The notes below the pieces were generated by a model. That model saw only the letters and a list, made by a program, of their open reading frames with translations, did not search any database and had not been told where the DNA came from. Made by a program: the position numbers and the translations under genes. Shown in pieces: positions 1-48,680 of a stretch of DNA of 64,000 nucleotides (position 1 is its first letter; every line of letters begins with the position of its first letter). The stretch comes from Azolla caroliniana. Taxonomy: Eukaryota; Plantae; Polypodiophyta. The stretch lies in NCBI GenBank assembly GCA_043228905.1, contig JBHGNT010000006.1, positions 992,001 through 1,056,000 on the forward strand, given 5' to 3'.

Positions 1-2045
1 GGTCCTAGCTATATTTTCTCTAATCCGGTTTTGCTCTGAAGTCAATACACCGGAAGATATTTGCCCTCCTGGAGGGACAATTTCAAGTTGTTGTTCATCG
101 TCTTCTTCTTCCTCGAACTCCAAGACGTCGAGGTCCTCGTCATTAGATATTTGTCGTTTTTGATATTTTTTATGTTTCGGTTTTGTTTTCCGAGACTTTT
201 TAGGCGGAATCTCTGCTTCTGTGCTCATCATCTCTCCGGTAACATAAGGCCGAAGAGCTACAATAAGATTATTCTTTGGTTGCATATCTTTTCGCAAAGA
301 TTTTGGGTGGCATACGTCAGGTACTAGGTTTCCTTCATCAACTTGCACTCGCCTTATACCACCGGAGCTCTCAACTTCGAGGAAGATAATGGACGAATCA
401 TTGTCTTCATATTCTAAATTACGAACTTTACCATAGGGGAAGGTCTTCCCTAATTCAAGCTTTCCTTTTCCTTCCGACGTGGCAAATATGAGGAGCAATA
501 CCCCATCTTCTTCAACATAAGTGAGACTCCATTTTACGTGTGAATAATTTTTTAGCTTATGCTCCGTGGACTTATCTTCTACGAGCATAATTTGTTTATT
601 TTTCGTATTCCCTACGGATGATTTCGAAGTCCCATCACCTCCGGACTCGAATAATGATCGTCGAGACTTTTCTTTTAAAAAACTCTCCGAGTCATGTTTT
701 GTCGGAGTCCGGAACTTCAACTTGAAAGACGGCACCTTCAGACGGGGCTCACTGGGGAAAAAAGCAAAATATTTTCGTGAAATAAATGTAAAATATACGT
801 GAATACACCAAAACACAACTAAATTCTCTTTAATACACCGTAGTACACGTAAAATACACATAAAACGCACCTAAATACACGTAAGTGCACCAAAATACCC
901 TTAACTACATGTAAAACACACCTAAATACACTAAACCCTAAACTGAATACTCTCCAATACACCTAAGTACACGTAAAATAAACATAAAACACACCTAAAT
1001 ACACGTAAGTAGACCTAAACACACCTAAACACTACTAAATACATATAAATACACCTAAGTACATGTAACAGACACGTAAATACGACGAAATACACCTAAA
1101 TATACATAAAATACATCTAAATATACCTGCATCGGATTTCAGAGGATTTCCTATCCACTCCTCCCTAATCCGATGCACTGCATCGGATTTCAGAGGTTTT
1201 CTTATCATCTCCTCCCTAATCCGATGCAGTGCATCGGATTAGAGAGGACATCCTCTGAAATTCGTTGCACTGTGTCGGATTTCAGAGGTTTTCTGATCAT
1301 CTCCTCCCTAATCCGATGCACTGCATCGGATTAGGGAGGAAATCCTCTGAAATCAGAGGTTTTCTCATCATCTCCTCCCTACTCCGATGCATTACATTGA
1401 ATTTGGGAGGATATGATACGACATCCTCTGAAATCCGATGCATTGCATCGGATTTCAGAGGATATAATACAACATCCTTTGAAATACGATGCGTTTCATC
1501 GTATTAGGGAGGATTTTCTTCCTAATCCGATGCAGTGCATCGGATTTCAGAGGTTTCCTGATCATCTTCTCCCTAATCTGATGCAATGCTCCCTAATCCG
1601 ATGCACTACATTGGATTAGGGAGGATATGTTACGACATCGTCTGAAATCCGATGCATTGTATCAGATTGGGGAGGATAACCTCTGAAATCCGATGCATTG
1701 CATCGGATTTCAGAGGATGTCGTATCATATCCTCCCTAATCCAATGTAGTGCATCGGATTAAGGACGATAACCTCTTATTCTTATGTATGTGTTGTCTTA
1801 ATGTCCTATCTACCCCCATGCAGTTCATCGAGTTAGCGAGGAAGTACTTTCTAATCCGATGCACTGCATCGAATTAGAGAGGACATTCTCTCAAGAAACC
1901 GAAGAAATTATACATACACCAAACTAATTATAATTAAAGTCACTCAATTTTATAGATAATAAAAAAGAATCTTTATGGTATCTTTAGGAATCTTTAAATT
2001 TGGGTAATAGAAGACTTACTTGCCAACTGTCTTGCTCGATTTCAT
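1..2045 (-). CDS. Unknown protein, spliced (exon 1 2045-2020, intron 2019-752, exon 2 751-<1), 3' end runs off the window
   Basis: Exon 1 reads ATG AAA TCG AGC AAG ACA GTT GGC AA|gtaagt. The acceptor is ttttttccccag|T GAG CCC and the phases match (AA+T = Asn). Exon 2 is open for about 250 codons to the window edge: MKSSKTVGNEPRLKVPSFKLKFRTP...KWSLTYVEEDGVLLLIFA...PPKKSRKTKPKHKKYQKR...EFEEEEDDEQQ. It is absent from the ORF track because no stop lies in the window. Confidence 0.75.
787..1127. repeat. Degenerate A/C-rich tandem repeat (about 11-12 nt units such as AAATACACCTA / AAGTACACGTA)
   Basis: Many recurrences of tacac/acacctaa/tacacgtaa. It lies in the 3' part of the minus-strand intron and is G/T-rich on the sense strand. 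Confidence 0.85.
1128..1885. repeat. Array of palindromic modules (AATCCGATGCA-N-TGCATCGGATT junctions with two arm types, TCAGAGG and AGGGAGG)
   Basis: About a dozen 40-70 nt units, each bounded by TGCATCGGATT...AATCCGATGCA, with short variable interiors in either orientation. Confidence 0.92.
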
Positions 2046-2153
2046 GTTAGACTAGTTGTTGACAATGTGTTGATGAACACAGAAAACGATGACTTTTTCT
2101 AAAGAGTGCTCTGAGCTCTTGAAACGTGTAAGAGATAATGAGCGGTAGATCTC

Positions 2154-2163
2154 TATTTATATA
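2154..2163 (-). promoter_or_regulatory. Candidate TATA box for the minus-strand gene, within an AT-rich divergent intergenic region (2046-2410)
   Basis: TATATAAATA on the minus strand, about 110 nt upstream of the ATG at 2045. Confidence 0.45.
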
Positions 2164-2410
2164 GTTAACTTAAATTGTTTTTTTGGAAAATAAAATAAAT
2201 TTTTTTTTTAAAAAAATCTCTTAAAAAAATACAATATTACACAATAAATTATTATAAAAAATTTACAAAATTAAATAATAATATGATGTCAATATACCTT
2301 ATCTTTTATCCCAAGATGTCTTCATATGGTTTATGTTCGTAGACTAGATCTTAAATTCCTAAACTTCTACTTAAACAAGAGAAAGGTGTTAATTTAAGTT
2401 AGGCTTCAAG

Positions 2411-5164
2411 ATGTCTTGTGCTTCGAGTAGATCATCCTTGTTTTCAGTGGACCCTTATGTTTTATCGAGTAACTCATATTTCTCAGTCGATGAGTACAAG
2501 GTCCCAAGTGTTTCAAAGGGTCCAGGTGAAAATGTTAGTTGTGATGTTGGTAATAACTCAAACTCACTTTTCTCAATTGACCCTTTCAAGAGGCCAGGAC
2601 AAAGTGGTATACAAGAAAGCAAAAGTTGTGCAAGCATTGACAAGGATGAAACCACATCTGGCGAAGCTTGCGTAACAAAGCCTCTCACATTCAAAAGAGT
2701 TCCTCGACAAGTTAGTGTAAAGAGATATAACTTTTTATGTTCTGATCGTCAAATTGTTTGTGATTCGAGCAAGACATGTTGTGGGAATCTATGTCTTAAT
2801 AAATTTGGAAAGTCAAACTTACGAATAATGCGGGAGAAGTATCTATCACTTAATGGTGAGGAACAAGATACTTTTCTTATTTCACATATGCAGCTTGTAA
2901 GAGATCACGCCACTGGGGCTAGTTCAACGCACGTTGAATATTACCTTGCATTGAGGACTAAGTGTTGTAGAGTTGCTTTCAAAATTGCTCATAGCATTCG
3001 GAACATGAGGCTTCAGAGAATACAACTAAGATTGGTGAAGGGATCGTTTATACCTTTTGATATGAATTCCTCTGGTAGTAAGGGTCTTATAGGGCGTCAT
3101 TCTATTAATTGGATGGAGATATATTTCTCAAAGCAATGTGATATTATGCCTACTACTGGGAGATTGCACTTGTCTGATAATTTCACTCGTCGTCAGGTGT
3201 ATCAAGAATATAAAGACGACATGTTGTCACAAGGTGTACCTTACATACAGTATCGACATTTCAATCGATTATGGAGGTTACAATTTAACAATGTGGTTAT
3301 ACCGCGTAAAGTTCGAATGGGTGTTTGTTCAATATGTGCAAGTTTAAAGAGTATGGCAAAGGGTGGGAAATCAGATGATGAAATAAAGAATTACAAGAAT
3401 CTATTGAAAGAACACCGTGAGAGTCAAGCATTGGAACATTCTAAAGCTATGCACCACCGACGAAAAGCTCTCCAATCACCTGAAAGGTATATGTGTATGA
3501 TTATTGATGGCATGGATCAGAAGAAGACTTGTTTGCCACACTTTCAAAGGTTGCCAAAGGATATTGGAGATGAATGCCTTGTACAAATGCATTTAGTAGG
3601 TTGCTTGTCATATTGTCAGACAATAAGGCCTCAAGTATTCTTAACTTATCCTAATATCCACAACAACCCTAATCTTACAGTTACAGTCATGCAAAGAGTG
3701 TTGCAGTCTTGGCCAGGTATACTCCCGCCTGTTCTATACGTGCAACTTGACAATACAGCCAGAGAAAACAAAAACTCAATTGTTTTCAGTTACTTAAGCA
3801 TGCTAGTAGAGAAGGGTTTATTTAAGAAGATTAAGGTTAACTTCTTACTAGTTGGTCATACTCATGATCATATAGATCAAATGTTTAGTAGGTTCTCAAA
3901 TAAATTAGCACGATGTGATGCTTTCACGCTTCCTACGCTAACAACGTTGATCAGTGAAGCTTATACCCCAAAGCCCGAAGTACATCAGTTGAATGAAGTG
4001 TATGATTTTAAACGCTTCTGCATGGATGGTGATGGGGCTCAAGGTAGGGTTCTTGCACCTCTGAATAATATAAGTTTTAACCATGTCTTCCTCATAAAAC
4101 GAAGTGATATGAGCCACAACACGACGATGTTGTATGCAAAACAATACTCATCTAGTTCACAATGGGAGCCACAAGAGGGTTGTAGGTTCTTACTTTATTT
4201 TCCAAATACAGAAATTCATGGTGCAGAACAAATGTCGTATGATGACCATAAAAAAATGGTTCATAGCAACTCAATTGATGAGAAAAAGATATATTGGATG
4301 CGATGCCTTGAAGAGAAACAAAGAAATATTGAGCGCACCAAGAAGTATGCTGGTGATCAAGATGTTCAATGGTGGGATACCTTCTTTAACCATCAACATA
4401 CAATTTTAAACAACTACATTGCCGGAGTATGGCCAATCCAAAATGCTTTCACATGGAACATTGGTATGTCGTCAATAGTTTCACCTGCTAACCATCAATT
4501 AATTGGTAATGCCGAACTCAATAATCTAGTTCGCCCACGACAGAGAGATATTTATGTGGGACCAAGAATATCGCGTACTGCAGAGGCAAGATGGCAAGGC
4601 AGTTTGCATGAACTACAAGTTGGGATGTTAGTTGCAACATTAGCTGGGGATGATGAGTTGGGCCATCCATTTTGGAGTGCTAAAATTTTGGATATAATGA
4701 AGGATGAATCAGGCAATCAAGTTAAGTCCATTGTGGTTCATTGGTATCACACCTCTTCACCAAATCCATTCACTGGAAAGTACTCTTTAGAGATTGTTAA
4801 GGATGTTGAAGGCACAAGTGGAAAGCGAAGAAGAAAGAATCTACCAAGCACGTATGTTCTTACATTGGATAATGTTGACATACTAGTGTATGACTTCTCC
4901 TTGACCAAAACAGGCCATCTAAGACAAACCACAATCAAGATATTAAAAGAGAAGATCCCAAATGCGGCTCCAACCACTACACAAAGACAAACAAGAAGCA
5001 TGTCTCATAACCATGGTGATGTTGGATTGCAATTGGATGAAGACAATGCATTGGTTGCCAGTGATGATGAGGATGATACCTCACAAAGCTCTTCTAGTTC
5101 ATCGGATGGGTCTGAAAATGATGGCATAGACTTGGAAAGCGATAGTTTGACACATGATCTGTAG
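2411..5164 (+). CDS. Sola-like/DUF7869-type DDD transposase, 917 aa, intronless, with a C-terminal SH3/BAH/Tudor-like beta domain and an acidic tail
   Basis: Cys-rich N-terminal motifs (CCGNLC, KCCRVAF, VCSIC). Putative catalytic motifs IIDGMDQ, YVQLDNTARENKN and FLLVGHTHDHIDQMFS resemble the Sola-type DN..NKN / FL..GH....D pattern. The C-terminus has LQVGMLVA...PFWSAKILD...IVVHWY. Confidence 0.8.
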   Translation: MSCASSRSSLFSVDPYVLSSNSYFSVDEYKVPSVSKGPGENVSCDVGNNSNSLFSIDPFKRPGQSGIQESKSCASIDKDETTSGEACVTKPLTFKRVPRQVSVKRYNFLCSDRQIVCDSSKTCCGNLCLNKFGKSNLRIMREKYLSLNGEEQDTFLISHMQLVRDHATGASSTHVEYYLALRTKCCRVAFKIAHSIRNMRLQRIQLRLVKGSFIPFDMNSSGSKGLIGRHSINWMEIYFSKQCDIMPTTGRLHLSDNFTRRQVYQEYKDDMLSQGVPYIQYRHFNRLWRLQFNNVVIPRKVRMGVCSICASLKSMAKGGKSDDEIKNYKNLLKEHRESQALEHSKAMHHRRKALQSPERYMCMIIDGMDQKKTCLPHFQRLPKDIGDECLVQMHLVGCLSYCQTIRPQVFLTYPNIHNNPNLTVTVMQRVLQSWPGILPPVLYVQLDNTARENKNSIVFSYLSMLVEKGLFKKIKVNFLLVGHTHDHIDQMFSRFSNKLARCDAFTLPTLTTLISEAYTPKPEVHQLNEVYDFKRFCMDGDGAQGRVLAPLNNISFNHVFLIKRSDMSHNTTMLYAKQYSSSSQWEPQEGCRFLLYFPNTEIHGAEQMSYDDHKKMVHSNSIDEKKIYWMRCLEEKQRNIERTKKYAGDQDVQWWDTFFNHQHTILNNYIAGVWPIQNAFTWNIGMSSIVSPANHQLIGNAELNNLVRPRQRDIYVGPRISRTAEARWQGSLHELQVGMLVATLAGDDELGHPFWSAKILDIMKDESGNQVKSIVVHWYHTSSPNPFTGKYSLEIVKDVEGTSGKRRRKNLPSTYVLTLDNVDILVYDFSLTKTGHLRQTTIKILKEKIPNAAPTTTQRQTRSMSHNHGDVGLQLDEDNALVASDDEDDTSQSSSSSSDGSENDGIDLESDSLTHDL

Positions 5165-5442
5165 ATATTGAATTGTACATCAAAATGTTAGTTAACGAAT
5201 ATGTATAAATATAGGTGGTAGTCATTTTGTACATTCTTTTGTAAGTTTGGCATGTCTATTATTTAGGCATTTTTTGAAAGACCTACAATTTTGGACATGC
5301 TTAAAATCAATATATTTTTGGGTCATTTTTTAAAATCCTTTATGCATGCAGCACCCCTTTTTGTCAATCGACCTATTTTGTGTCTTTTTTTGACGGATAG
5401 TTCTTAAAATGCGACATATTACCTGTTTCAAATGTCCCGGTG

Positions 5443-6724
5443 TTACTTGCATCCCTTGCTCAACCATTTGGCTGACCGAGACCAAATTCTTTGTGATGGT
5501 GGGAACATGCAAGACATTTTTAATGTATGTTTGCTTACCTCTTTCGCCGAACGGAACATTGCCGATGTGTTGAATCGGGTGCGTAGTGTCATCTCCGATT
5601 TCGACATAACCGGGTCGCTCCGGTTCTCGAAGTTCGAGAAACCATTCTTTATGGGATGTCATATGGTTTGAGGCTCCAGAGTCTACAAACCATACGTCCT
5701 CCGGATTGAGGGCACTAGTTGAGGTAGAGGCCGACATAGAGTTTGCTCTATGTTTCATCATGAACATTCCGCCACGATCTTCGTAGTCGGAGTTGTTCCC
5801 GTACATTCCGCTATACTCTTCGTAGTCAGAATTGTGTGCGTAATTCGTGAGTTGTCGACTTGTGGAAGCCGATTCACGCATCTTCTTTCGGCACTCTTCT
5901 TCGTGGTGGCCTAGCTTTCCGCAATATCTGCATTCGGTTGCGTTTTGACGGCTAGGGCTGGATTGGAAGCTCCCCCTTCTTGCGAAGGTTCCTCGTTGGC
6001 CTCCGTTTTGCGGCCGAAATTGGGAGTTGTTGTCGTAGGTCGGACCTCGTCCGCCTTGTCCTTGGCCGAATCGGCCTCTCGCTCGTCCGCGTCCTCTTCC
6101 TCCATTAGAGTGCGTGTAGAGCATGTGGCCTTCCGACTCATTGCTCCTTGTACGCGCGTGGTTTTCTTCGACCAATAGCATTGATTGGAGCTCGAAGAAG
6201 GAGGGAGATTTCTCCCGTGCTAGAACGGCGGTTCGCATCGCGCCGAACCGTGGTGCGAGGCCGCCGAGGCATATTTGCACCATCTCATCATCATCTATAC
6301 TTACGCTTATTGAGCCGAGCGAGTCGCAAAGCTCCTTGATCTTCAAGTTGTATGTCGTGATGGACATGTCCCTTTGTTGAATGTTGTTCAACTCTTGGCG
6401 GAGTTGAAGCTTCCTCGTGGTCGTGTTGGCGGCGAAAATCTTTCGCAGATTTTCCCACGCTTCCTTCGGCGTCTTGGCTTCTCGAATGTAACCGAGCATG
6501 TGGTCGTGAACACATGTCGCCAAACAATACATCACACGGCTTGCGGCTTGCTCCCATGTCGCGTATCCGGGAGCCGCTTCGGCGGGTCGGTCTTCATGCA
6601 CTCCTTTGATGTAGCTCCAATAGCCTTGTCCGACAAGGTATTGGTGCATATTGTACTCCCAAGATGCGAAGTTGTTTCGATCCAACTTCTCGGTAGGGAG
6701 AGCGCTCCCCATTTGAGTATTCAT
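5443..6724 (-). pseudogene. Copia gag-protease ORF, truncated by the insertion
   Basis: UBN2-type gag, zinc knuckle CRYCGKLGHHEEEC, protease WFVDSGASNHM, and NVLHVPTITKNLVSV. Confidence 0.9.
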
Positions 6725-7263
6725 TATATCGATTTTTCTTCTTCTTCTTCTCTCTTCGAATGCGAGCTATGTAGCGAAGCTACGATAGCTATGAGCCGGT
6801 TCTTGGTCGTCGGCATAGAGCACAACACACGATCACGATGAGGCGAATGGGCTAGATCGAGCTACCAAATCGCTCTGATACCATGTAAAGAATCAAGAGA
6901 TGGATTCTTGTGAAGCGGAATAGGTGTGAACTATGTGTGTATGTGTGTATGAGATAGAGAGAGAGAGAGACACAGAGTATACGCAAGGTTAAGTATATTA
7001 GCAAAGGAGAAAGACTCAACATTATACAAGATGGGAGGAGGGTGCTTTATGTAGTCACCCTCTCTCTTCATTAACTACAAGGCTCATGGAGCATGGGGAA
7101 TGTGAAAGCTCATAAGTTATGTGTCATGGAATATGATTCTATGACTCATACTAAATGCTAGAATACAAAGTGGTGACATAATGGTGACTCTTGACCGTTG
7201 AGGTGTCTCTTCACTCTCAAGGTGAGTTCACACACTAGACCAAGTTGAGCTTGATTCTCAACA
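5443..7263 (-). mobile_element. Ty1/Copia 5' portion (5' LTR 7263-6884, PBS 6883-6872, gag-protease), interrupted by the DNA transposon and inserted in Gypsy RT
   Basis: The LTR reads TGTTGAGAATCAAG...CTTGATTCTTTACA with terminal inverted repeats. It is followed by PBS TGGTATCAGAGC (initiator tRNA-Met). Confidence 0.92.
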
Positions 7264-9880
7264 TACAATTATGTCTTTTGGTCTCACAAATGCTCCTGCG
7301 ATTTTTCAGCATATGGCCAATGATATTTTGCGAGACTTCTTGGATATATTCACCATCATTTATTTAGACGATATCTTGATATTTTCCCAGACTCAAGAAG
7401 AGCATGATGAGCATGTACGCCAAGTTCTACGACGATTACAAGAATATGGTCTCAACCAAGTGGAATTCTTGGGGTACATAGTATCACCAAAAGGAATATC
7501 TATGGATCCAACAAAGGTGCAAACAATTCTAAAGTGGGAAACACCACAATCTGTGCATGATATCCAATGTTTCTTGGGATTTGCAAATTTTTACCGCAAA
7601 TTCATTAGGAACTACTCAAAGAAGGTTCTGCCTCTTACACAATTAACACATAAAAACCAACCATTCATATGGAATTCTAGTGCGGCGGAGGCCTTCAAAA
7701 GCTTAAAACATGTGTTCACATCAACTCCTATTTTGATCCATGCTGACCAAGACAAGCCTTTTATTTTGGAATCTGATGCATCAGTTTTTGCACTCAGGAT
7801 TGTCCTCTCACAACCCAAAGAAAACGGGCTATTATATCTAGTTACTTTTCATTCATAGAAAATTTGAAGCTACAGAAATTAATTATGAGATTCACGATGT
7901 CAAGGAGCTTTTGGCTATTGTAGACTCTTTTGAGCACTGGCGCCACTTTTTGGAAGGTTCTCCCCATCAAATCATTGTCTATAATGATCACAAGAACCTA
8001 ACATATTTCCAGAATGCTCGAGTCTTAAATTGTCGACAAGCTCGTTGGGCACAATTTCTTACATGCTTTGATTTCTTGATCGTGTATCACCTCACAATAC
8101 ACTAGGGAAAGGCAGATGCGCTATCTCGGCGTTCCTACATGGCACCCTGTTTAGGGGAACCTACTTTTGATCATCAGAAACAGATCCTCCTTGGTCCTAA
8201 CCCAGTCCTGATCGTTTATAAGTGATGCTCGCTAATGCTTTTAAGATGCCCACGGACTCGACACTTATTAGTATGATTCGTATTTATCTTGAATCAAATG
8301 AATTTGCACAAGATGCCTTGAATCATATCATTCCAGATCGTGCTTCTTGTTCAAAGTCCATGAATTCTCGTAAAGATTATAATCAGTTCAGTTGGCATGA
8401 TAATTTACTTTTTCGAAATAATTTACTTTATGTCCCTGATGGCCGTTCTCAACTCCCTACTTTACAACATTGCCATGACATGCCAATGGCTGGACATTTT
8501 GGAGTTCACAAAACTTTGGAATTAGTTTCTAGATATTATTGGTGGTTGCATCTTCATAATTATTTTGAGGACTACATTCGCAGTTGTGATGCATGTTGTT
8601 GGTCCAAGTGTCCTCGACATTGACCATATGGTTTACTCCAACCCTTACCAGTTCCTAATGGTCCATGGAAGTCTATATCTATGGATTTCATTACCGATCT
8701 TCCATCTTCCAAAGGTTTTGATTCCATCCTTAGTGTTGTAGATCGCTTCACTAAGATGACACATTTTCTACCATGCACAAAAACTATTAATAGTCAAGAG
8801 ACAGCATATTTGGTTATGCGTGAAGTGTTTCGGCATCATGGTCCACCTTATGATATCATTAGTGATTGAGGACCATAATTTATCTCAACATTTTGGAAAC
8901 ACTTGTTTGGGCTTGGGCTCCTCCAAATTCATTGTAAACTCTCTTCAAGCTATCATCCAGAGGCTGATGGTCAAACCGAACGTACCAATCAAACCTTGGA
9001 ACAATACTCATTGGGTAGATTATTTGCATTTTGAGAAGTTTTCTTACAATAATTCAATTCATTCTTCTACTAAACTTACTCCCTTCTTTGCAAACATGGG
9101 TGTTCATCCCTGTTGGACAATGCTTGAGCACCCAAAATCTTGAAAAACCCTGTTGTAGAGGATCGCTTATGTCATATCTAGGAAATTCATATTGCTCTTT
9201 CTTTTCTTTTCTTTTTTTCCAAAAACATATTGCTCTTTCTCATCATGCTCAAGCCACCCATAAGAAATTTACAAATCGCCATCGACTCAACTCATCACCG
9301 AAAAACCCCAAAATTCAAGTTGGAGATTGTGTATGGCTCTTACAACATAATGTGAAGACCACTAGGCCTTGTAACAAGTTGGATTATCAATGTCTTAGTT
9401 CATATTTAATCACTTAAAAAATCAATGAAGTTGATTTTCATCTTGATCTCCCTCCGCATATGCATCTTCATCCAGTGTTCCATGTCTCACTCTTGGAACC
9501 TTATGCTTCAAACTCTATTCCAGATCATGTTGTTCCCCCGCCACCTCCTATTGAGCTTGATCAAGGCGTGGAATATGAAGTGAAATCCATTTTGGACTCC
9601 AAAGTTGTGAAGAACAAATTGTATTATTTCGTTGATTGGTTGGGTTATACACCCGCGGATTGAACATGGGAGCGAGCTAAAAATCACAATAATACCAAAG
9701 AACTTGTAGCTAAATTTCATCAATGATATCTGAATAAGCCAACTCCTAGTTCGTGCATTGTGACTCATGGAACTCATCATCGAAGGAAGGGGATAATATA
9801 CCAAAACTCTAAGACTTGTAATGGAGGTTCAAACCCATGACCTCCTTTAAGATGATGTGAAGCTTCAACCACTAGGATAC

Positions 9881-10298: not shown

Positions 10299-12431
10299 CC
10301 TTTACCTCACATGCCCTTGGCAACAAAATGATGTAACATTTTTTCAGCCATTATAAGACATGTTTATCTTCAAGGATTGTGTGCATTTGACATTTGGCAA
10401 TGATGCCTACAAATCTAATATTTTAAACCTCTAATGAATGTGCAAAAAGGGACATAATTTTATGGTAAAGGGCCAACTTGAAGGCCATTCATTAAGCTTG
10501 GCAATACATGCAACAACACACTGTATTAGCTAATGGTATGGACTTTCTATCCTTTGGAATATTCAATGAAGTAGTTGACATGAAATACATATGCAAATTT
10601 CAAATTAGTATTATTTCGATGTTGTAATTAATAAGTAAACGTTAATTATACATGATGTAATATTCTTAAATTCATATATTAGTGACAAGGGATGAAAGTC
10701 CTTGGGTTTGTAACTTTGTCATCCAACCCTGAGTTCTTTGTCCTTGTTTTGTTTTTAGTTTAGAAGAAATTGAAAGGTTTGGTAAGAATGCGGTGAATTC
10801 TCTAGAAGACTCTACATTACATTATGCTTTGACAACAAAATGTCTAGAACAACTATTATGATTGCTAATAGCTATATATTTGTGACTCAATCACCATTAA
10901 AAGTATTTTTAGAAAAAAAACTATAAAAAACTTATACACATCCAATTTTGAAAATTTTAAGAAACAATGGGAGAGAATACTTGGTAGATGCAGATATGCA
11001 TACTCGAGGTGTATGCTACAATAAAAAATGTTGTAAATCATTTGTTGTAGGATTTAATAGCTCATTTCTAAAAGGTTTCAAAAAAGAAGAAGATTTAAGT
11101 TGCACATTACAAATTATTCACTAGTCAAAAATCTTCGTAATGTCAAAATGACTAGTACTCCATTAAACTTACCCTTGATGTACAACATAACAATATTTGA
11201 AAGAATTAAATGTTTGTGAATATTGATCCTTAAAACAACAATTGAGACAAGAATCTGCACTTGAAAATTTCACAACACTATGATGCCAAATGTAGCAATA
11301 CGTGGAGGTAATAGCCATAACAGAGATAAATGAATTGTAATGTTAGATAGGCTCGCCGCTCAACATAACTCTACATTTATAAAAGGAAAGACTTCTTCAA
11401 TCCAAAATCTAGGTATAAGAGTTTGAATAATAGATATATTTTAGTTGTCCTAAATGCAAAAACATGAAAATCGTGGTTCAAAGACTTTCAGATGTTAATA
11501 TGAAAGCACAAGCATAAACATTTAAGAGGGAAACAATGCCTTACCATTTGGTAAAAACCAAAGCCAATAAATCAATTGTTGTGATGTGGCAGGTCCAAAG
11601 GTACCAAATAGAGAATAGTATGGAAAGAGAACAATCACAAAAGTACGTATAATGAAAACAATTATAATAAAAGGTTTAGAGGGAAATGGTAAAGCTATGG
11701 ATTGTGAGGAAGAGGGTTGAGAGTTTGATTTTTTTTTGGCATGTAAAATAACTACCCTTCTGATTTTCCAAGAGAAAAGGGGTAGGTGACCATTTCATGC
11801 AATAGAGAAAAAATGGGAAAAGAGGGCTTATTTCTGGTTGCTCATTTTGGGTTTAGGGTTAGGGTGAGAGTCCATGTGAGAGTGGAGTTTAAACCACCTC
11901 TCCTCCATCTCGGCAATTCAGACAGTTAACCCATTCAAGAATCCCCAGATTCATGCCTATTGTCAGCTCCCTAAAGTATTTCATCATTTACCACGCTCGT
12001 ATTTTCCGTGTTGGGACCTTCTTCTCCTTTGCAAGTCATCATGGCGTGTTGGGTGAGCATGGAGGAAAGAAATTGAAAGTCGGTAGGGTTCATTAGTCAA
12101 GGAAGGAAGCTCGAAGGGGCATGGGTTCCCCACATCAACAAGAGGTAGTATAGTCGTTGGTTGTATGTGGGCTCGTCGAAGACCATGAAATTAGGATCCT
12201 TACCGTTAGCTTAACTAGTGTACCTTCATTACCACCATTGCAAACACTTATCATAATCACTACTATAGTTATTTTGTAATTGCATTGAAAACCCAAGGGA
12301 ATTTCTTTTGTAAAAAACTAGTGTCGAGTGTTAACCTATGTTTATTGTATTAAACAAGTGGACTTAGCCCTAATCCTTGTTTTAATCACTTGAACGCTAC
12401 CATGGTGAGAGGGATAGACAATTAGATCTTC

Positions 12432-12715
12432 GTTGACTTTAAGGTTTCAGCAAGTCAAAGGCTTTCTTGAAGTCGAAGGCATTCCTTGAGTCTAATGTTT
12501 CCTTGAGTCGTAGCGCCGGCGAGAGAGGAAATAATGATTGACTTTAAGGTTTCATCAAGTCAAAGACTTTCTTGAAGTCGATGGCATTCCTCGAGTCTAA
12601 TGTTTCCTTGAATCCAAGCTTTCCTCGAGTCAAAGGCATTCCTTGACTTTGAGGTTTCCTCAAGTCGATGCCTTTCCTCAACTCTAAGATTTCCTCAAGG
12701 CAAAGAATTCCTTGA
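12432..12715. repeat. Degenerate tandem array of about 18-nt units containing a duplicated block of about 78 bp
   Basis: Units resemble TCAAAGGCATTCCTTGAG. The block TTGACTTTAAGGTTTCA...GTCTAATGTTTCCTTGA occurs at about 12433 and about 12538. Confidence 0.75.
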
Positions 12716-37262: not shown

Positions 37263-40200
37263 ATGGAGGAGGCAACAGCTCCTGCTGCGACACCACCGCC
37301 GCCGCCGACTACTACTACTACTGCCAACACTGCTGTGCCTTCGAAGAGCTTGCAGGAATTGGCCATGGAAGGGCAAAAAGTGCTGGAAGGAACAGTAGAG
37401 GCGGCCCATGAGACCCTGGCCTCCATGAATGAAGTTCTCTGCAACCCGGCCCTATGGGTAACCTCTCAACCCAACCCGCCGGCAACGGTGGCGGCACCAT
37501 CGTCATCGTTGGGGCCGATGACGTCACCATCAGCCCTGACGTCGCCATCATCGGTGGCAAGTGCGGCGGTGACATCATCATTGTCTGCCGTCACATCATC
37601 TTCATCGCCGTTGGCTGAAACGGATGTTAATCGAACCAATCCAAGTGAGCAAGAGGCTGGATGGGCAGCCCTTGATGAATCTCGGTTACGTCTCCGATCT
37701 TCCACAACTTCTCTTCGGACAGTCATCACTGCCATTTTCAACTCTCCTGAGGTTACTTCTTGTTTCTACGCTGAATTTTAATTTCATGTTTTATTTACAC
37801 TGCTTTGCAAAAATTTGAGGTAAAAAATTCCATAGCCAGCTGCTGCATAGTATCCAGGATTTTTTGTATTACTAATAATCTGAGTTTCCATTTCTTAAAA
37901 AGATCGTTTTTGTAAAATTGAGGTCAGAATCAACATAGCTTGACTGCTTCATATTATTGTTTGGGATACATTTTCTTCACTAATAGTCCAACGTTCTTTT
38001 TTGTGCATAGGGATTTGGTAATTAAGAAAAAATAAATGGATTTAGAAAAATGTAGGTCGAAATCACCATAGCTAAGCTGCTGCTGCATAATGTTCTGGAA
38101 AGGATTCTTTGCTAATTGGTCTAGTTTCATCTTAATGATTTAGTTCAAAATCACACTGATACATTGTATCCTAGGTTTTTGTATCCATACTAATCCGTGG
38201 AATTCCCTTTTAGGCATAGGAAACCATGAGAAAACACATTGAATGGATAGGAATATATAATGTCCCTTTCTTGGTTTTCTTCCTTTTTGCAAAATTTGGT
38301 TGAAATCGCCACAGATACCTGGCTGGTACGTTTTTCTTGGAAATTAAATTTCTTTATGGATTGGCCAAGTTTCCTTTTGGTGCATAAAAAAACATGAGAA
38401 AACATACTGATTTTCAAAAACTAGATCAAAATCACCATTATTAGGCTGCTGAATTGGCGTTTGGGAAAAAAATATTGATTACAAACTGACGGGGTTCCTT
38501 TTCATAATTTATGTTGGACAGAATTGCCATATCTAGACTGATACCTATACCTATATTATATATATATTTATTATGACATTGAAGGTTCTATTTGAACATT
38601 GTAAATGTATATTCCTCGGGCATTTTCATCCCCCTTCTTATTATGACATTGAAGGTTCTATTTGAACATTGTAAATGTATATTCCTCGGGCATTTTCATC
38701 CCCCTTCTTATTATATGACATTGAAGGTTCTATTTGAACATTGTAAATGTAGATCCCTCGGGCATTTTCATCCCCCTTCTTTGCATCTCTTAATAATATG
38801 GCTGTGATTTGTCACTACGTGCGATTATCTATACCTTGGGATCCCTTGGCTCGTAGCTATTCAACCAACGAAAAAGGCATCCCATAAACATACTTCTGAT
38901 CTGAATGAGAGTTGTTGCAAGCTGTGGGGATAAGCTCTACCCCCTCCAGATTAACCCAAGTTTGAAAGAAGGGTAGCCTAAAGATCCCGTGTTTGGGAAA
39001 TTATATTGTTACTGTTTGGACGAGTTTCCATTTCATGCATAGGAATTTTGTGGAGTACGTAAATGCTGGATTTTAATCACTTTCCAAAACATCGATTGCC
39101 GATTTATTAGAAAAATTCCCATTGCTAGGTTTCTGCTGCAAATCCTTTGGGAAATATTTTGTCAGAAATTTTGGCCCCTTCATGAATAATTATTTAGCTG
39201 GATTGAGGGCACCCTTTTCCTGAACATTGGCCAAGGACGATGTCATGATCTGATGTTCTAATCATAATTCTGAGTAGTCAAGAGAGAAAATAAGCCAAAG
39301 GAAAAAATAAATAAGTTATTGATTAAATGTGTTTGGATTTTGGGTTTAAGACCTTGAATCCTGTTTTAGAAAGGAAAAACAAAGTGATGAGAATCAAACC
39401 TTTCCATGGAATTGCTCATGTTTCAATGGCAATTACCAAATCATATATTTGGAACTAACCATGCCTTTTAATTTTCCTGAGGTATTTGGCAGATAATAAT
39501 GGCCACAATGTTACCTTGCTTTTCTACCAGCTGAAACTATGATACTTTTTATCTCTTTGCATTAGAGGGATGCCAATGGCCATTCACAAAATTATTGGAC
39601 AAGATGAGATGAATTACATTGGGTTCCGAATATATCAGGAATTGAAAAGTCTTAATAGACAAAATTGAGTGAAGGAAAGTACTACCCAGTCTAGATTTTA
39701 AAAGTCCGACTTTGTGTATCCTTGATAGGGACAACGACAAATATCCCATGTCCATGTTCCCAATAGCATTGCTTTTTAGCCAGTCTTTCGATGGATACTG
39801 TGTCTTGGCACTAGCGAGATATTGCTAAAGTTGATGTATAACATGTTAATAACTAAAAGAAATTAAGGAAAAAGCATCTCTGTATTAACATGTTATACAT
39901 CAACTTTAATTGATGTATAACATGTTCATAACCAAAAAGAAATTAAGAAAAAAGCATCTCTGTATGAAAACTAAAGAAACAACAGGAAAGGAAACTCATT
40001 AAAGAGTTGTTGCTTTTCAGAACCAAAACTACAAGTCAATTTAAATAGACCAAAGAAAATGGTTTCTGATCTTTGTTTTCAGTTGCTGCTGGTATTCTTT
40101 TCCCAGAAATTAGGTATTTTGGTGATATGCTGAAATTAGGGGATCTGCTACCTACAACAATTAGGGTTTTATGATTTTTGGTTCTGTCTTACAAGCAAAG

Positions 40201-43572: not shown

Positions 43573-46500
43573 TGATAGAAATTGACGCTTTCAAAACCTT
43601 CACAATGGCGAGCTGCAAGGCGACGACCTTGATCTCGCTGTCCTCGCCACAAGCGGCGGTATTACACAGAGGCGTCGACCTCTTCCTTTCTCTCTCTCTC
43701 ACTCTCTCTCTCTCTCGGCTGCTCTCACTTCGCTCCCTCTCAGTGGAAAACAGAAAAATGAGCAACAACTACAAAACTGTTTGCCCTAAGTCATATTTAT
43801 ACACATATGACTTTCGGGCTATTTACAAATATAGCCTCAAGGTCCCTTGGCAAACATATTCACAAATATGTCCCCGCATCCGGATCTCTCTCCGGGTACA
43901 TTCGTCATCCGGCTCCGTAGCCGGGGTCTTCATCATCCGGATCCTGAACCGGGTCTTCATCATCCGGCTCCGATACCGGGTACTCCTCATTCGGGTCTTC
44001 ATTCCCGATTCCCGGACATCCGACCATCCCATCCGGAGGGACCGTAATCCCAACAAACTCCCCCTTCACTTCGGCATGGGATGTCTTTCCAGTCCGACCC
44101 TCTTCCGGCACGCTTCCAGCTTGTCGGGTGTGAGCACTTTGGTCAGCATGTCTGACCCGTTCTCGTTCGTGTGGATCTTCGTCAGCACGAACTCCTGGTC
44201 TTCTATCCTTTCCCGGATCCAGTGATATCTTCGCTGGATGTGCTTCGTCCGGGAGTGATAGGCCGCATTCTTCGCAAGGTGGATGGCACTCTGACTGTCG
44301 TAGTAGAGTCGGTACTCCTCCTGCCGGATACCGAGCTCTCTAATGAAGTCCTTCATCCATATTATTTCCTTGCCGGCTTCAACAGCCGCCATGTACTCCG
44401 CCTCCGTGGTTGACAACGCAACCGTCTTCTGCAGCCTCGACTGCCACGAAACAGCTCCCCCTGCATACGTCATCACATACCCTGATGTGGACCGGCTGGT
44501 ATCTGCATCAGCCGACATATCCGAATCGGTAAAGCCGTCGAGTTCGGGCTTACCGGAGCCGAATCGGAGGCACACGTTTGCCGTGCCCTTCAGGTATCGG
44601 AGTATCCACTTGGCCGCGTTCCAGTGCTCTTTGCCGGGATTGCTCATGTACCGGCTCACCACTCCGACTGCATATCCTATGTCCGGTCTTGTACACACCA
44701 TTGCGTACATCAAGCTTCCGACGGCAGAGGCATATGGTACTTTCATCATGTCCTCCTTCTTAGCCTTTGTCTTGGGGCTTTGCTTGCTGGACAACTTGCA
44801 GTTTGCCGGGAGGGTTGACCCAACCGGTCTTGCTTCCGACATGTTGAACCGGTGAAGCACCTTTGTCACGTACTTCTCCTGTGACAGCCACAACTGCTTC
44901 TTCTTCCGGTCCCGGATGATGTGCATCCCTAGTATTTGCCTCGCCGGACCCAGGTCCTTCATTGAGAAGGTTCGGTGAAGCGCTTTCTTCAGCATCCGTA
45001 TCTTGACCTGGTCCCGTCCGACGATCAATATGTCGTCCACGTACAGGAGGAGTATTAGAAAGTCTCCTCCTTCGAACTTCTTCACAAACACGCAGTGATC
45101 GGACTGCGTTTTGTGGTACCCTTCGTCGGTCATGAAAGAGTCGAACTTCCGGTACCATTGCCGGGGAGCCTGCTTTAGTCCGTAAAGGCTCTTCTTCAAC
45201 CGGCATACCAGGTGCTCCTTCCCTTTCTTCTCGAATCCTTCCGGTTGCTGCATGTAGATCTCTTCTTCGAGGTCACCGTGAAGGAATGCCGTCTTCACGT
45301 CCATCTGTTCTACCTCGAGGTCCATGCTTGCCGCTATGCTCAGCACCGTCCGGATGGAGGTCATCTTCACTACCGGGGCAAATATCTCGTCGAAGTCGAC
45401 GCCCTTCTTCTGCTGGAACCCCTTCACCACGATCCTGGCTTTGTATCTCGGGGGGTTTCCGGCATCTCCCGGTTTCAGCTTGAACACCCACTTGTTTCGA
45501 AGTGCCCGCTTTCCTTTCGGCAACTCCACAAGTTCATATGTGTGGTTCTCATGCAGGGAATCCATCTCCTCCTGCATGGCACTTAGCCACCTGCGGCTAT
45601 GGGTGTCAAGCTTTGCTTCTTCAAAACTCTCCGGCTCCCCCTCGTCAGTTAGCAGCACGTGCTCTGGTTCCGGAAATCTCCGGGGGGCCCTTCTCTCTCT
45701 TAGAGGATATCTCCGTTTCGGAGCTTCGGTAACCGGCTCCTTCGTTTCCTCTTCATCCGAATCCATTTCGGGATCGGGGCCGGTTCCGGTATCAGTTTCA
45801 TCTTCCTCGGCCGGTTCTGTTTCTTCACCGTCTTCGGCCGGATCCTCGAGTGCTAACCGGTCCCTTGCCGGTCGGGACTGCTCCTCGTAGAGTTGATCCT
45901 CACCGGTCGACTTGGAGCTCTTCATCTTCTTATCCGACTCCCAGTCGGCGAGTGTCTTGTCCTCCATGAAGATGATATCACGACTCCGGAATATCTTTTT
46001 GTCGACCGGGTCCCATACTCGGTAGCCGAACTCGTCATCGTCGTAACCGAGGAATATGCATGGCCGGGTCTTTGGATCTAGCTTTCCTCTCCGGTCCTTT
46101 GCCACATGCACATATGCGAGACACCCGAACACCTTCAGATGCCGGTAGGATACTTCCCTACCGGTCCACACTCTCTGCGGCGTGTCTCCGTCCAAAGGTA
46201 CTGAGGGTGATCTGTTTATCACGTATGTCGCCGTCGACATTGCCTCAGCCCAAAACCCCTTGGGTAATTTCGCATGCGCCAGCAATACTCCGGACCCTCT
46301 CCATTATGGTCCGGTTCATCCTCTCGGCCAGCCTGTTCAGTTCCGGCATCTTCGGCACAGTAAACTCGAGCCGGATTCCCTTCGAGCGACAGTACTCCTC
46401 GAATTGCCCCCGGTATTCCCCTCCGTTATCCGCTCGTATCGCTTTCAGCTTCTTGCCGGATTCCCTTTCCACTCTCGCGTGGAGTTCTTTGAAGACGCAC

Positions 46501-48680
46501 AACACTTGGTCCTTTGTCTTCAACGGTGCCGTCCACAGCTTCCGGCTGTGGTCATCAATGAATGTTACGAAGTACTGGGCTCCGCCATGTGACTTCGTTT
46601 CTACTTGACACACGTCAGAGTGCACCAACTCCAATGGTGCGCTACGTCTCGTCGGTGGCCTTGAGTGGAAGGAGGTTCGGTTCTGCTTACCGGCCAGGCA
46701 ATCAATGCACTTCTCCAGGTGCACATGCTTCACTGGAATAAGGTTGTCTTCTGCAAGCCTCTTCATCCCCTTCTCACTCATGTGGCACAGTCTCTTGTGC
46801 CATAGCTCACCGGCAGTGTCGGCTGCCACGTTCAACTCCTCCGGACACAACCAAGCATTCATAAGGTACAATGTGTTGACTTTCCGGGCCCGAGCCACTA
46901 TCAGGCTCCCCTTGCTGAACTTCATTACGCAGTTCCGGATGCTACCTGTGTAGCCTTCATCGTCTAGCCTCCCGGCCGAAATCAGGTTCAATCGAACCTC
47001 CGGAACGTGTCAGACATCCTTCAACAACATTTTGCATCCGGTCGAGGTTGTCAACCACACGTCTCCTATGCCGGCAATCCGGCACGTACCTTCATTTCCC
47101 ATCCGAACACAGCTATGCTCACCGGCTGTGTAGGATGAGAAGTATCTTCTTTCCGGGGTCAGGTGGAACGACGCTCCGGAATCGACCACCCAGGTAGTCT
47201 CATCGCCGGCAATGTTTAGTTCACCTTCTTCGGTGATGAGCATGATCTCCTCTTCACTTGCCGCGAGTGCCGTCGTTCCTTTCCGGTCCTGCCCTCGCCG
47301 ATCCGAACCATTCCGGTCCGTGGCTCCCCGGTAAGCACCGTTCCGTTCCGAAGACTTCTTCGAATCGGTGTCGTCGGCTCCGTTGTCTTTTCGGTAATGC
47401 CGACAATTCTTTCGGAAGTGCCCCGGCTTCCCACAGTGGAAGCATGTGGGCCTTCCTCTTGACTGCGACCGGGTCCCCGACTTCTCCCGTCTTTGCGGAC
47501 TCCGGTTCCGTTGTCTTCCCCGATCCGATTCGGTAAGCAGCATCTTCGGATCGGAGGCCGGTTCTTTATCTGTCCGACGCGCTTCTTCGTTCAAAATGCT
47601 TGTCTTTACCGTTTGTAGGGACAAGTTATCTTCGGTGCAGGAGGTGCTGAGAGTCACCACCAAGTTCTCCCAGCTTTCCGGCAATGTACACATCAGCATG
47701 ATGGCTTGCATTGCATCCTCCAACGGGAACTTGATCGCCGCAAGCTGGTTCACGAATCCCATGAACGTGCTTACGTGTTCCACCATACTCTCGCCGTCCC
47801 GGTACTTGAGGTTCACTATCTTCCTCATCAGGGAGGTCCGGTTCAACGCATTCTTCCTCTCGTAGAGGCCCGACAGCTTCTGCCACATCTCATATGCGTT
47901 GGTGTCGTTCGCCACATGTTGTAGAACGCTCACGTCGACGTATTGCCGAATGGTTGCAACGGCTTTCCAGTTCAGAAGCCTCCATTCCGTCTCAAGTACC
48001 CCCTTGGGTATTTCCGACCTGTCGATCGGTTCATATAGGTCCCGAACAATGAGCAGATCCTCCATCTTTATCTTCCAGTCGGCGTAGTTCTGCGCATTCA
48101 GCACCATCATCCCCGGCTGCCCGCTGCTGCCGCCTTCCATTTTCTGCACTGCAGTCGCTCTGATACCAGATTGATAGAAATTGACGCTTTCAAAACCTTC
48201 ACAATGGCGAGCTGCAAGGCGACGACCTTGATCTCGCTGTCCTCGCCACAGGCGGCGGTATTACACAGAGGCGTCGACCTCTTCCTTTCTCTCTCTCTCA
48301 CTCTCTCTCTCTCGGCTGCTCTCACTTCGCTCCCTCTCAGTGGAAAACAGAAAAATGAGCAACAACTACAAAACTGTTTGCCCTAAGTCATATTTATACA
48401 CATATGACTTTCGGGCTATTTACAAATATAGCCTCAAGGTCCCTTGGCAAACATATTCACAAATATGTCCCCGCATCCGGATCTCTCTCCGGGTACATTC
48501 GTCATCCGGCTCCGTAGCCGGGGTCTTCATCATCCGGCTTCGTAGTCGGGGTCTTCATCATCCGGATCCGGAACCGGGTCTTCATCATCCGGCTCCGATA
48601 CCGGGTACTCCTCATTCGGGTCTTCATTCCCGATTCCCGGACATCCGACCATCCCATCCGGAGGGACCGTAATCCCAACA
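43573..48680 (-). mobile_element. Full-length Ty1/Copia (5' LTR 48680-48172, 3' LTR 44055-43573, TSD AAAAT)
   Basis: Near-identical LTRs, PBS TGGTATCAGAGC at 48168-48157, PPT GAAGGGGGAG adjacent to 44058, and AAAAT on both flanks. Confidence 0.96.
44066..48140 (-). pseudogene. Tnt1-like Copia gag-pol with a premature stop (47012-47010) and a frameshift (about 46285)
   Basis: Three consecutive ORF pieces: gag/CFHCGKPGH/VVDSGAS, then GAG-pre-integrase and integrase, then RT (LLYVDD) and RNase H. Confidence 0.92.

Follow-up and report, generated by a model that had tools for sequence, protein, structure and literature searches.

The stretch of Azolla caroliniana DNA analysed here (the window: 64,000 nucleotides, positions 992,001 to 1,056,000 of contig JBHGNT010000006.1) raises the question why a transposon should carry a long row of palindromes within an intron of one of its own genes. 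An earlier note, made from the sequence alone, had described about 12 such units and offered three explanations: a binding platform for a protein of the element, a source of intronic hairpins or small RNAs, or a product of repeated inversion or template switching.

The palindrome array

The array and a second repeat in the same intron are located as follows.

1128..1885, no strand assigned: palindrome array, 14 x 23 bp plus half-sites at 1128 and 1575, with 18/28-bp linkers; the palindromes are predicted to dock the accessory protein
791..1123, no strand assigned: degenerate 10/20/41-bp simple repeat, seen in the sequence

The repeated unit is the 23-bp palindrome AATCCGATGCA-N-TGCATCGGATT. 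With up to three mismatches, ten copies (six of them exact) are found, all in 1167-1875 and none elsewhere in the window, and a copy at this threshold occurred in 0 of 100 shuffled sequences. With up to six mismatches there are 14 non-overlapping palindromes in 1167-1875; the array described earlier is thus real, with a count of 14 and not about 12. The half-sites come on top of these, the one at 1128 being due to a deletion in the window copy relative to copy C14a. Successive spacings are 51, 41, 51, 71, 51, 51, 41, 71, 51, 41, 51, 74 and 41 bp. The two types of arm do combine in four ways (B-A 2, B-B 7, A-A 3 and A-B 2 junctions). Unlike unique spacers, the linkers fall into a few related 18- or 28-bp classes that occur in both orientations. 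The likeness to a repeat-spacer array is therefore superficial, as had been supposed, and a CRISPR-like array is ruled out. The degenerate simple repeat was not seen in the intron of family B.

The host transposon

The element that carries the array occupies the left end of the window.

1..5444, no strand assigned: right two-thirds of a transposon with terminal inverted repeats (TIRs); the whole element is 8,622 bp (G000:C6:988823-997444) and starts 3,178 bp left of the window
5408..5444, minus strand: right TIR, 37 bp, starting AACAC
5445..5448, plus strand: target site duplication (TSD) ACTT, 4 bp; the identical four bases precede the left end
2411..5164, plus strand: transposase open reading frame, 917 aa, DUF7869 (E 3.7e-51), RNase H-like core, Sola1-like

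The TIR is 37 bp long and most gene-bearing copies measure 7.2-9.0 kb. Among 31 delimited elements the TSD is 4 bp in 27 (one of them in a poly-C run) and 5 bp in two, while two have none. Across 58 transposase sequences D447 and D489 are invariant and D366/D369 nearly so; the predicted fold gives weak Foldseek matches to Mos1, RNase H and integrases (best E 2.6e-3). Sola elements, in the definition used for comparison, have a 4-bp TSD, TIRs, a length of 2-9 kb and a DDD transposase (PMC10741241). The TSD, size and apparent DDD residues fit Sola and the element can be called Sola1-like, its likeness to reference sequences being confined to termini that resemble those of Sola1-1_Ec32. The array lies mid-element, at 0.54 of the length of the window copy and at 0.51-0.55 in most copies; its description as internal and not subterminal is thereby upheld.

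The transposase has one further feature: at residues ~735-850 (window ~4600-4960) a C-terminal beta domain is similar to BAH, a chromatin-reader fold (Foldseek match to DNMT1 BAH1 with E 0.024 and prob 1.0).

The accessory gene

Head-to-head with the transposase gene lies a predicted accessory gene, part of which is in the window.

2154..2163, minus strand: TATA-like box upstream of exon 1, seen in the sequence and inferred to be the accessory-gene promoter
2020..2045, minus strand: predicted exon 1 of the ParB-methyltransferase accessory gene, 26 nt; like the short exon followed by a phase-2 intron in families B and E
752..2019, minus strand: predicted intron 1, GT-AG, 1,268 nt, containing the array
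1..751, minus strand: start of predicted exon 2 (1,638 nt, extending beyond the window), whose later part encodes the ParB-like domain

The whole minus-strand gene has six predicted exons, GT-AG introns and a 969-aa frame, with an N6/N4 methyltransferase encoded in exons 4-6 outside the window. The placement of the array in an intron of this gene agrees with the prediction of a GT-AG intron at 752-2019; across the copies compared, the array starts ~50-140 bp into intron 1, near the inferred promoter between the two genes. Families B and E have a similar TATA and AGAGCAC motif upstream of exon 1, and the exon 2/3 and 3/4 joints resemble those of an annotated Ceratopteris homolog. The closest named homologs are from a fern (72% and 66% over the regions searched). 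The 969-aa frame is open in five of 14 subfamily-A copies, one of the five with a mutated acceptor; exon 4 of the window copy is frameshifted by 1 nt. Two RNA-like contig sets compared with window 1-5444 matched the transposase in two short pieces and the intron not at all, which is uninformative.

The predicted accessory protein

A 325-aa part of the accessory protein was modelled with a pLDDT of 87.5, and its ten best Foldseek matches are ParB, Noc and KorB (E 4.5e-5 to 9e-4). The N-domain aligns well with the ParB/Noc fold (7bm8_A, VIA; Z 11.0, rmsd 2.1, 99 residues aligned); the likeness of the helical (helix-turn-helix) region, residues 168-325, to ParB DNA-binding domains is weak (Z 3.8-5.7, rmsd 4.4-4.6). 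Exon 5 matches PF01555 (E 2.2e-8, 34.8 bits vs a cut-off of 26.7), and the catalytic motif IV, DIPY (exon 4), precedes the SAM-binding motif I, DLFSGTG (exon 5/6), which is the beta-class N6A/N4C layout. The gene is thus predicted, from these models and motifs, to encode a ParB/Noc-like fold with a helix-turn-helix region fused to a beta-class N6/N4 DNA methyltransferase. The mark would be 6mA or 4mC; DIPY departs from DPPY/SPPY.

Both motifs are intact in the five of 14 A copies that have the 969-aa frame. For the accessory gene, pN is 0.10-0.15 vs a pS of 0.56-0.79 between subfamilies A and B, and 0.28-0.31 vs 0.79-0.89 between A and E. The methyltransferase motifs are conserved and, judged from these values, purifying selection is apparent in A, B and E. 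The fusion to PF01555 recurs in eight of 27 long distant homologs scanned.

These observations bear on a first alternative, that the accessory protein acts as an operator-bound repressor or looping factor, like KorB or Noc, on two divergent promoters or in end pairing, with methylation secondary. It draws on the presence of KorB and Noc among the fold matches and on the location of the array near the inferred promoter and close to the middle of most copies. A conserved methyltransferase under purifying selection, its fusion in distant homologs and the retention of sites by M elements, which have no detectable homology to the promoter, all speak against it, and we hold it to be unlikely.

In bacterial ParB, the helix-turn-helix binds palindromic parS and the CTPase motif reads GxxRxxA (PMC13495010). 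The accessory protein departs from this motif: of the 36 homologs aligned, 26 have Ser in place of the Arg, and clamp-like spreading is therefore doubtful. A profile search of PDB sequences gave no matches, and no relatives of the ParB exon were found in the viral or prokaryotic genome contigs searched. The language-model neighbours of the ParB part (L049:7476-8450) are fungal DUF3723 clusters (score 0.96); this suggests a wider eukaryotic ParB-like family, as a lead only.

Linkage of the palindrome to the element

The earlier note had named two observations that would speak against a role in the element, namely absence of the array from other copies, or its occurrence throughout the genome as an independent MITE or satellite. 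The array is present in all 14 subfamily-A copies. Genome-wide there are 637 exact palindrome sites, against 0 for the control. Forty-four loci were examined (31 from a DNA search, the rest of the 14 C1 loci, and one C2 locus from the pattern listing); they are a sample of the 637 sites that takes in each of the 14 C1 loci which the search for the exact pattern listed. Element homology lies within 700 bp of the array at 42 of the 44, and the remaining two have transposase/accessory remnants or exon 1. All 44 being element-derived, there is no free MITE or satellite within that sample, and this explanation was rejected.

Viral contigs gave 0 palindrome matches. Eighteen of 22 metagenome matches belong to element families; the other four (L096, L097, L100 and L116) show no element homology, each being a lone hairpin in an A/T run, and were set aside as terminator-like chance matches. 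Locus L098 was considered as an A-type array in a distant family and dropped, since the locus proved to hold a non-autonomous element next to one that is E-like. A search for further distant families in the genome showed, in its best 115 places, none but the A and E types.

How the modular pattern arises

Unit number and orientation were compared among copies, as had been suggested. The 14 A copies have 10-21 palindromes in 14 different unit strings, and the 13 that were compared differ by only 0.08-2.47%. The 18-bp linker is inverted in two of the 14 and symmetrised in two more. The C/G centre is polymorphic at three of four anchored perfect sites vs a background of 1.3%, and the arms drift symmetrically within each family. 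T centres outnumber A centres by 63 to 1 in subfamily A; exchange between units therefore contributes alongside inversion, and flipping in place is ruled out as the only cause of the changed centres. To judge from these patterns, the array is built and shuffled by slippage and hairpin-driven template switching, of which the A/B pattern is a by-product; the conserved core is explained by neither.

The same findings form the case for regarding the array as a neutral, self-perpetuating product of these processes: rapid change of unit number between nearly identical copies, reversed or symmetrised linkers, exchanged centres and symmetric drift are all to be expected from it. Self-repair, though, preserves symmetry and not sequence, and these processes would leave the core free to drift like the arms; yet the core is fixed where arms and synonymous sites turn over. 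Furthermore, family E retains both a core with a CpG and the period of 51 bp. The neutral reading was already disfavoured and seems improbable. Inversion and template switching, as proposed at the outset, account for how the array is built and not for why it is kept.

Conservation of core, period and place

The 23-bp core is identical in A, B, the metagenome subfamily C (L112) and the non-autonomous elements M and N, and the adjoining arms differ in each. Between A and B synonymous sites differ at 0.56-0.79, which is near saturation, with the core unchanged and the linkers dissimilar. The number of sites varies: 9 and 13 A-type sites in N (2.3 kb), 14-15 in M (4 kb; homologous to A/B at the ends only), and 1-5 in 11 elements of the high-copy family B; one family-B copy has lost them.

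Family E is more distant, with 52% identity to A in the transposase and 57% in the ParB exon, and has no A-type site. In the same phase-2 first intron it has a palindrome of its own, AACTCGATACG-S-CGTATCGAGTT, of which there are 2,273 exact sites genome-wide. The E-type array is found in 13 of 14 elements fetched, with 3-15 sites; the fourteenth is interrupted at that place. The half-sites of A and E differ at 4 of 11 bases, all by transitions; ATCG stays the same although it contains a CpG. Between A and E there is little change in the presumed recognition helix, though these four bases differ. A non-coding element with E-type ends carries a variant of the E-type site. One non-coding E-type element ends in a 162-bp inverted duplication (L137 5864-6025), within which two E-type TIRs point towards each other.

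Spacing is conserved as well. It is 41, 51 or 71 in 198 of 222 cases in subfamily A and 51-52 bp in 91 of 97 in family E, and a spacing of 41 beside one of 51 recurs with three dissimilar linkers (A, N and C). In a periodicity test on 78 family-spacing values, which are not independent, 0 of 2000 jittered nulls were as good; for the long-linker families alone 122 of 2000 were, which is not significant. As an indirect measure of 5mC, CpG decay is not significantly lower in the arrays than in other parts (E 9/832 vs 31/1642, p = 0.18; A 2.5% vs 3.3%), and therefore gives no sign of 5mC protection. Taken as a sequence feature, the palindrome array is a conserved cis-element of the ParB-methylase transposon, kept in sequence, geometry and position across families.

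A different possibility is that the array acts as RNA: its intronic hairpins are long and might give rise to small RNAs by which the element is tuned. The intron strand is indeed predicted to fold strongly into long stems (-434 kcal/mol, z = -35), as any palindrome array would. A comparison with Rfam gave no family at the gathering score, only 20 weak matches of miRNA shape; the spacing follows DNA helical steps; and M elements have no detectable homology to the promoter or exon 1 of the gene. Of the earlier suggestion, the hairpin itself stands as a strong predicted fold, and the small-RNA role, possible in principle and unsupported, is very improbable.

The array as a probable docking row

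With modest confidence, we regard the array as probably a docking row for the element's predicted ParB-like/amino-methyltransferase, which would methylate the element (6mA or 4mC) and so favour its activity. In its favour are the conservation of the site and its arrangement across families, the confinement of the palindrome to these elements at the loci examined, its retention in non-autonomous families, and its place in a gene for a predicted ParB-like methyltransferase under purifying selection. Among the options of the earlier note, the one best supported, as a prediction, is that of a platform bound by a protein of the element itself, since the host gene encodes a ParB-like fold and this fold belongs to a palindrome-binding family. 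By analogy with ParB, a dimer of the accessory protein may bind each palindrome through its helix-turn-helix region. The spacing, with steps of ~10 bp, would put neighbouring dimers on one face of the DNA and could thus allow cooperative binding. The tethered enzyme, if its fused and conserved methyltransferase is a guide, would then methylate the element, and non-autonomous elements may keep their sites in order to borrow the protein in trans. The effect of the mark could be anti-silencing, licensing or repression. Several observations weigh against this reading: the weak likeness of the helix-turn-helix region to ParB DNA-binding domains, the Ser that replaces the CTPase arginine, the small change in the presumed recognition helix between A and E, CpG decay that is not significantly lowered in the arrays, the few sites of the abundant family B, and the dependence among the spacings in the periodicity test.

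The sites might also be bound by the transposase, as an internal enhancer, or by a host factor. Their retention in non-autonomous elements would be expected of anything that transposition needs. Between A and E both the sites and the TIRs differ, and co-divergence therefore singles out no one protein. On the other side, the palindrome is absent from TIRs and subterminal regions, the element itself encodes a ParB-type protein, and a like pairing is reported with an unrelated transposase superfamily (bioRxiv 10.1101/2025.02.11.637652). We therefore rate binding by the transposase or a host factor as having little probability.

The docking row could be imagined in a bolder form, as a eukaryotic parS: a phased, family-specific array in land-plant transposons that loads the ParB-methylase, which would spread from the centre of the element and write a non-host 6mA or 4mC that licenses the copy to be expressed or to transpose, with non-autonomous families parasitising the system by amplifying sites. 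This extension is tentative, and we think it rather unlikely in full.

Relation to known systems

Self-marking by ParB-type transposon proteins has been proposed before, in brown and in red algae, with no target defined. In the red alga Bostrychia, Plavaka elements have inverted-repeat arrays beside PAG3 (ParB-2OG), proposed as binding sites (bioRxiv 10.1101/2025.02.11.637652). As in Azolla, a ParB-like accessory gene adjoins tandem inverted repeats and is proposed to bind and modify its own element. As described there, PAG3 joins ParB to a 2OG oxygenase, a separate gene (PAG2) encodes the methylase, and the transposase is of the EnSpm/Plavaka type; the Azolla element, by contrast, is predicted to combine ParB and methyltransferase in a single protein, has its array in an intron, and has a defined site sequence, phase and set of family variants.

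In the brown alga Ectocarpus, Sola1-1_Ec32 has a ParB-like plus N4C/N6A methyltransferase gene of ~1,000-1,100 aa, whose product is proposed to mark the sequence of the element itself (PMC12477816). Compared by its description, it shares with the Azolla element the Sola1 type, a 4-bp TSD, AAC- termini and an opposite-strand ParB-methyltransferase gene, and differs in its length of 21.5 kb and its 282-bp TIRs. The main text of that paper mentions no palindrome or tandem array.

The analogy with VANC of VANDAL elements, drawn in the earlier note, holds in its logic and fails for the protein, which is unrelated. In both cases there is an element-encoded protein and a set of family-specific short targets amplified as tandem repeats, in introns or other non-coding parts (PMC5735166). 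VANC, however, has 8-9-bp non-palindromic targets, removes 5mC and is proven to bind, as reported there. The Azolla element has 23-bp palindromes and a predicted ParB-like protein with a writer enzyme, and its CpG decay is not significantly reduced. Membership in VANDAL (Mutator-type, 9-bp TSD class, VANC) is excluded by the 4-bp TSD, the DUF7869 transposase and the ParB-methyltransferase gene.

The bacterial systems ParB-parS, Noc-NBS and KorB likewise combine a ParB-type N-domain, followed by a helical DNA-binding region, with clustered palindromes (PMC13495010). Set against the parS described there, the Azolla site is an odd palindrome of 23 bp instead of 16 bp; the Arg of GxxRxxA is replaced, a methyltransferase appears fused, and the element has no ParA. 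DAM-carrying retrotransposons encode prokaryote-like amino-methyltransferases and show raised 6mA and transcription (bioRxiv 10.64898/2026.05.21.726589); they differ in being retroelements with a DAM-type enzyme, and the text of that report leaves ParB and palindromes unmentioned. Related literature includes PMC4738411, bioRxiv 2021.02.12.428880 and PMC8885841. A literature search, with most subscription journals outside its reach, found nothing on this plant transposon family or its site.

What this family adds is a defined 23-bp site, a second natural site and protein variant in one genome, intact young copies, and non-autonomous carriers. Together these make the idea of self-marking directly testable. 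If it is true, VANC would be joined by a second known means through which a transposon sets its epigenetic state, here with a bacterial-type mark, and the system would offer a compact programmable site-plus-writer pair.

Insertion site and tandem copies

The element is inserted in a copia-type gag-pol frame (window 5330-6766, minus strand; Retrotran_gag_2, Pol_BBD), with the junction at 5445, and gypsy-like pol fragments follow the copia frame at 7226-9663. Other tandem repeats of the window lie at 12429-12715 (nested, 17/35/52/105 bp), 38568-38781 (70 bp, three times), and 43877-43994 and 48498-48605 (27-28 bp). Elsewhere in the genome, at G000:C2:19298701-19318700 (L053-L054), a subfamily-A copy has its left 963 bp, together with flank, repeated in tandem at least five times with a period of 1,083 bp. 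At G000:C14:17409071-17433442 a diverged copy lies in a tandem array, with four identical transposase matches at 7,924-bp intervals.
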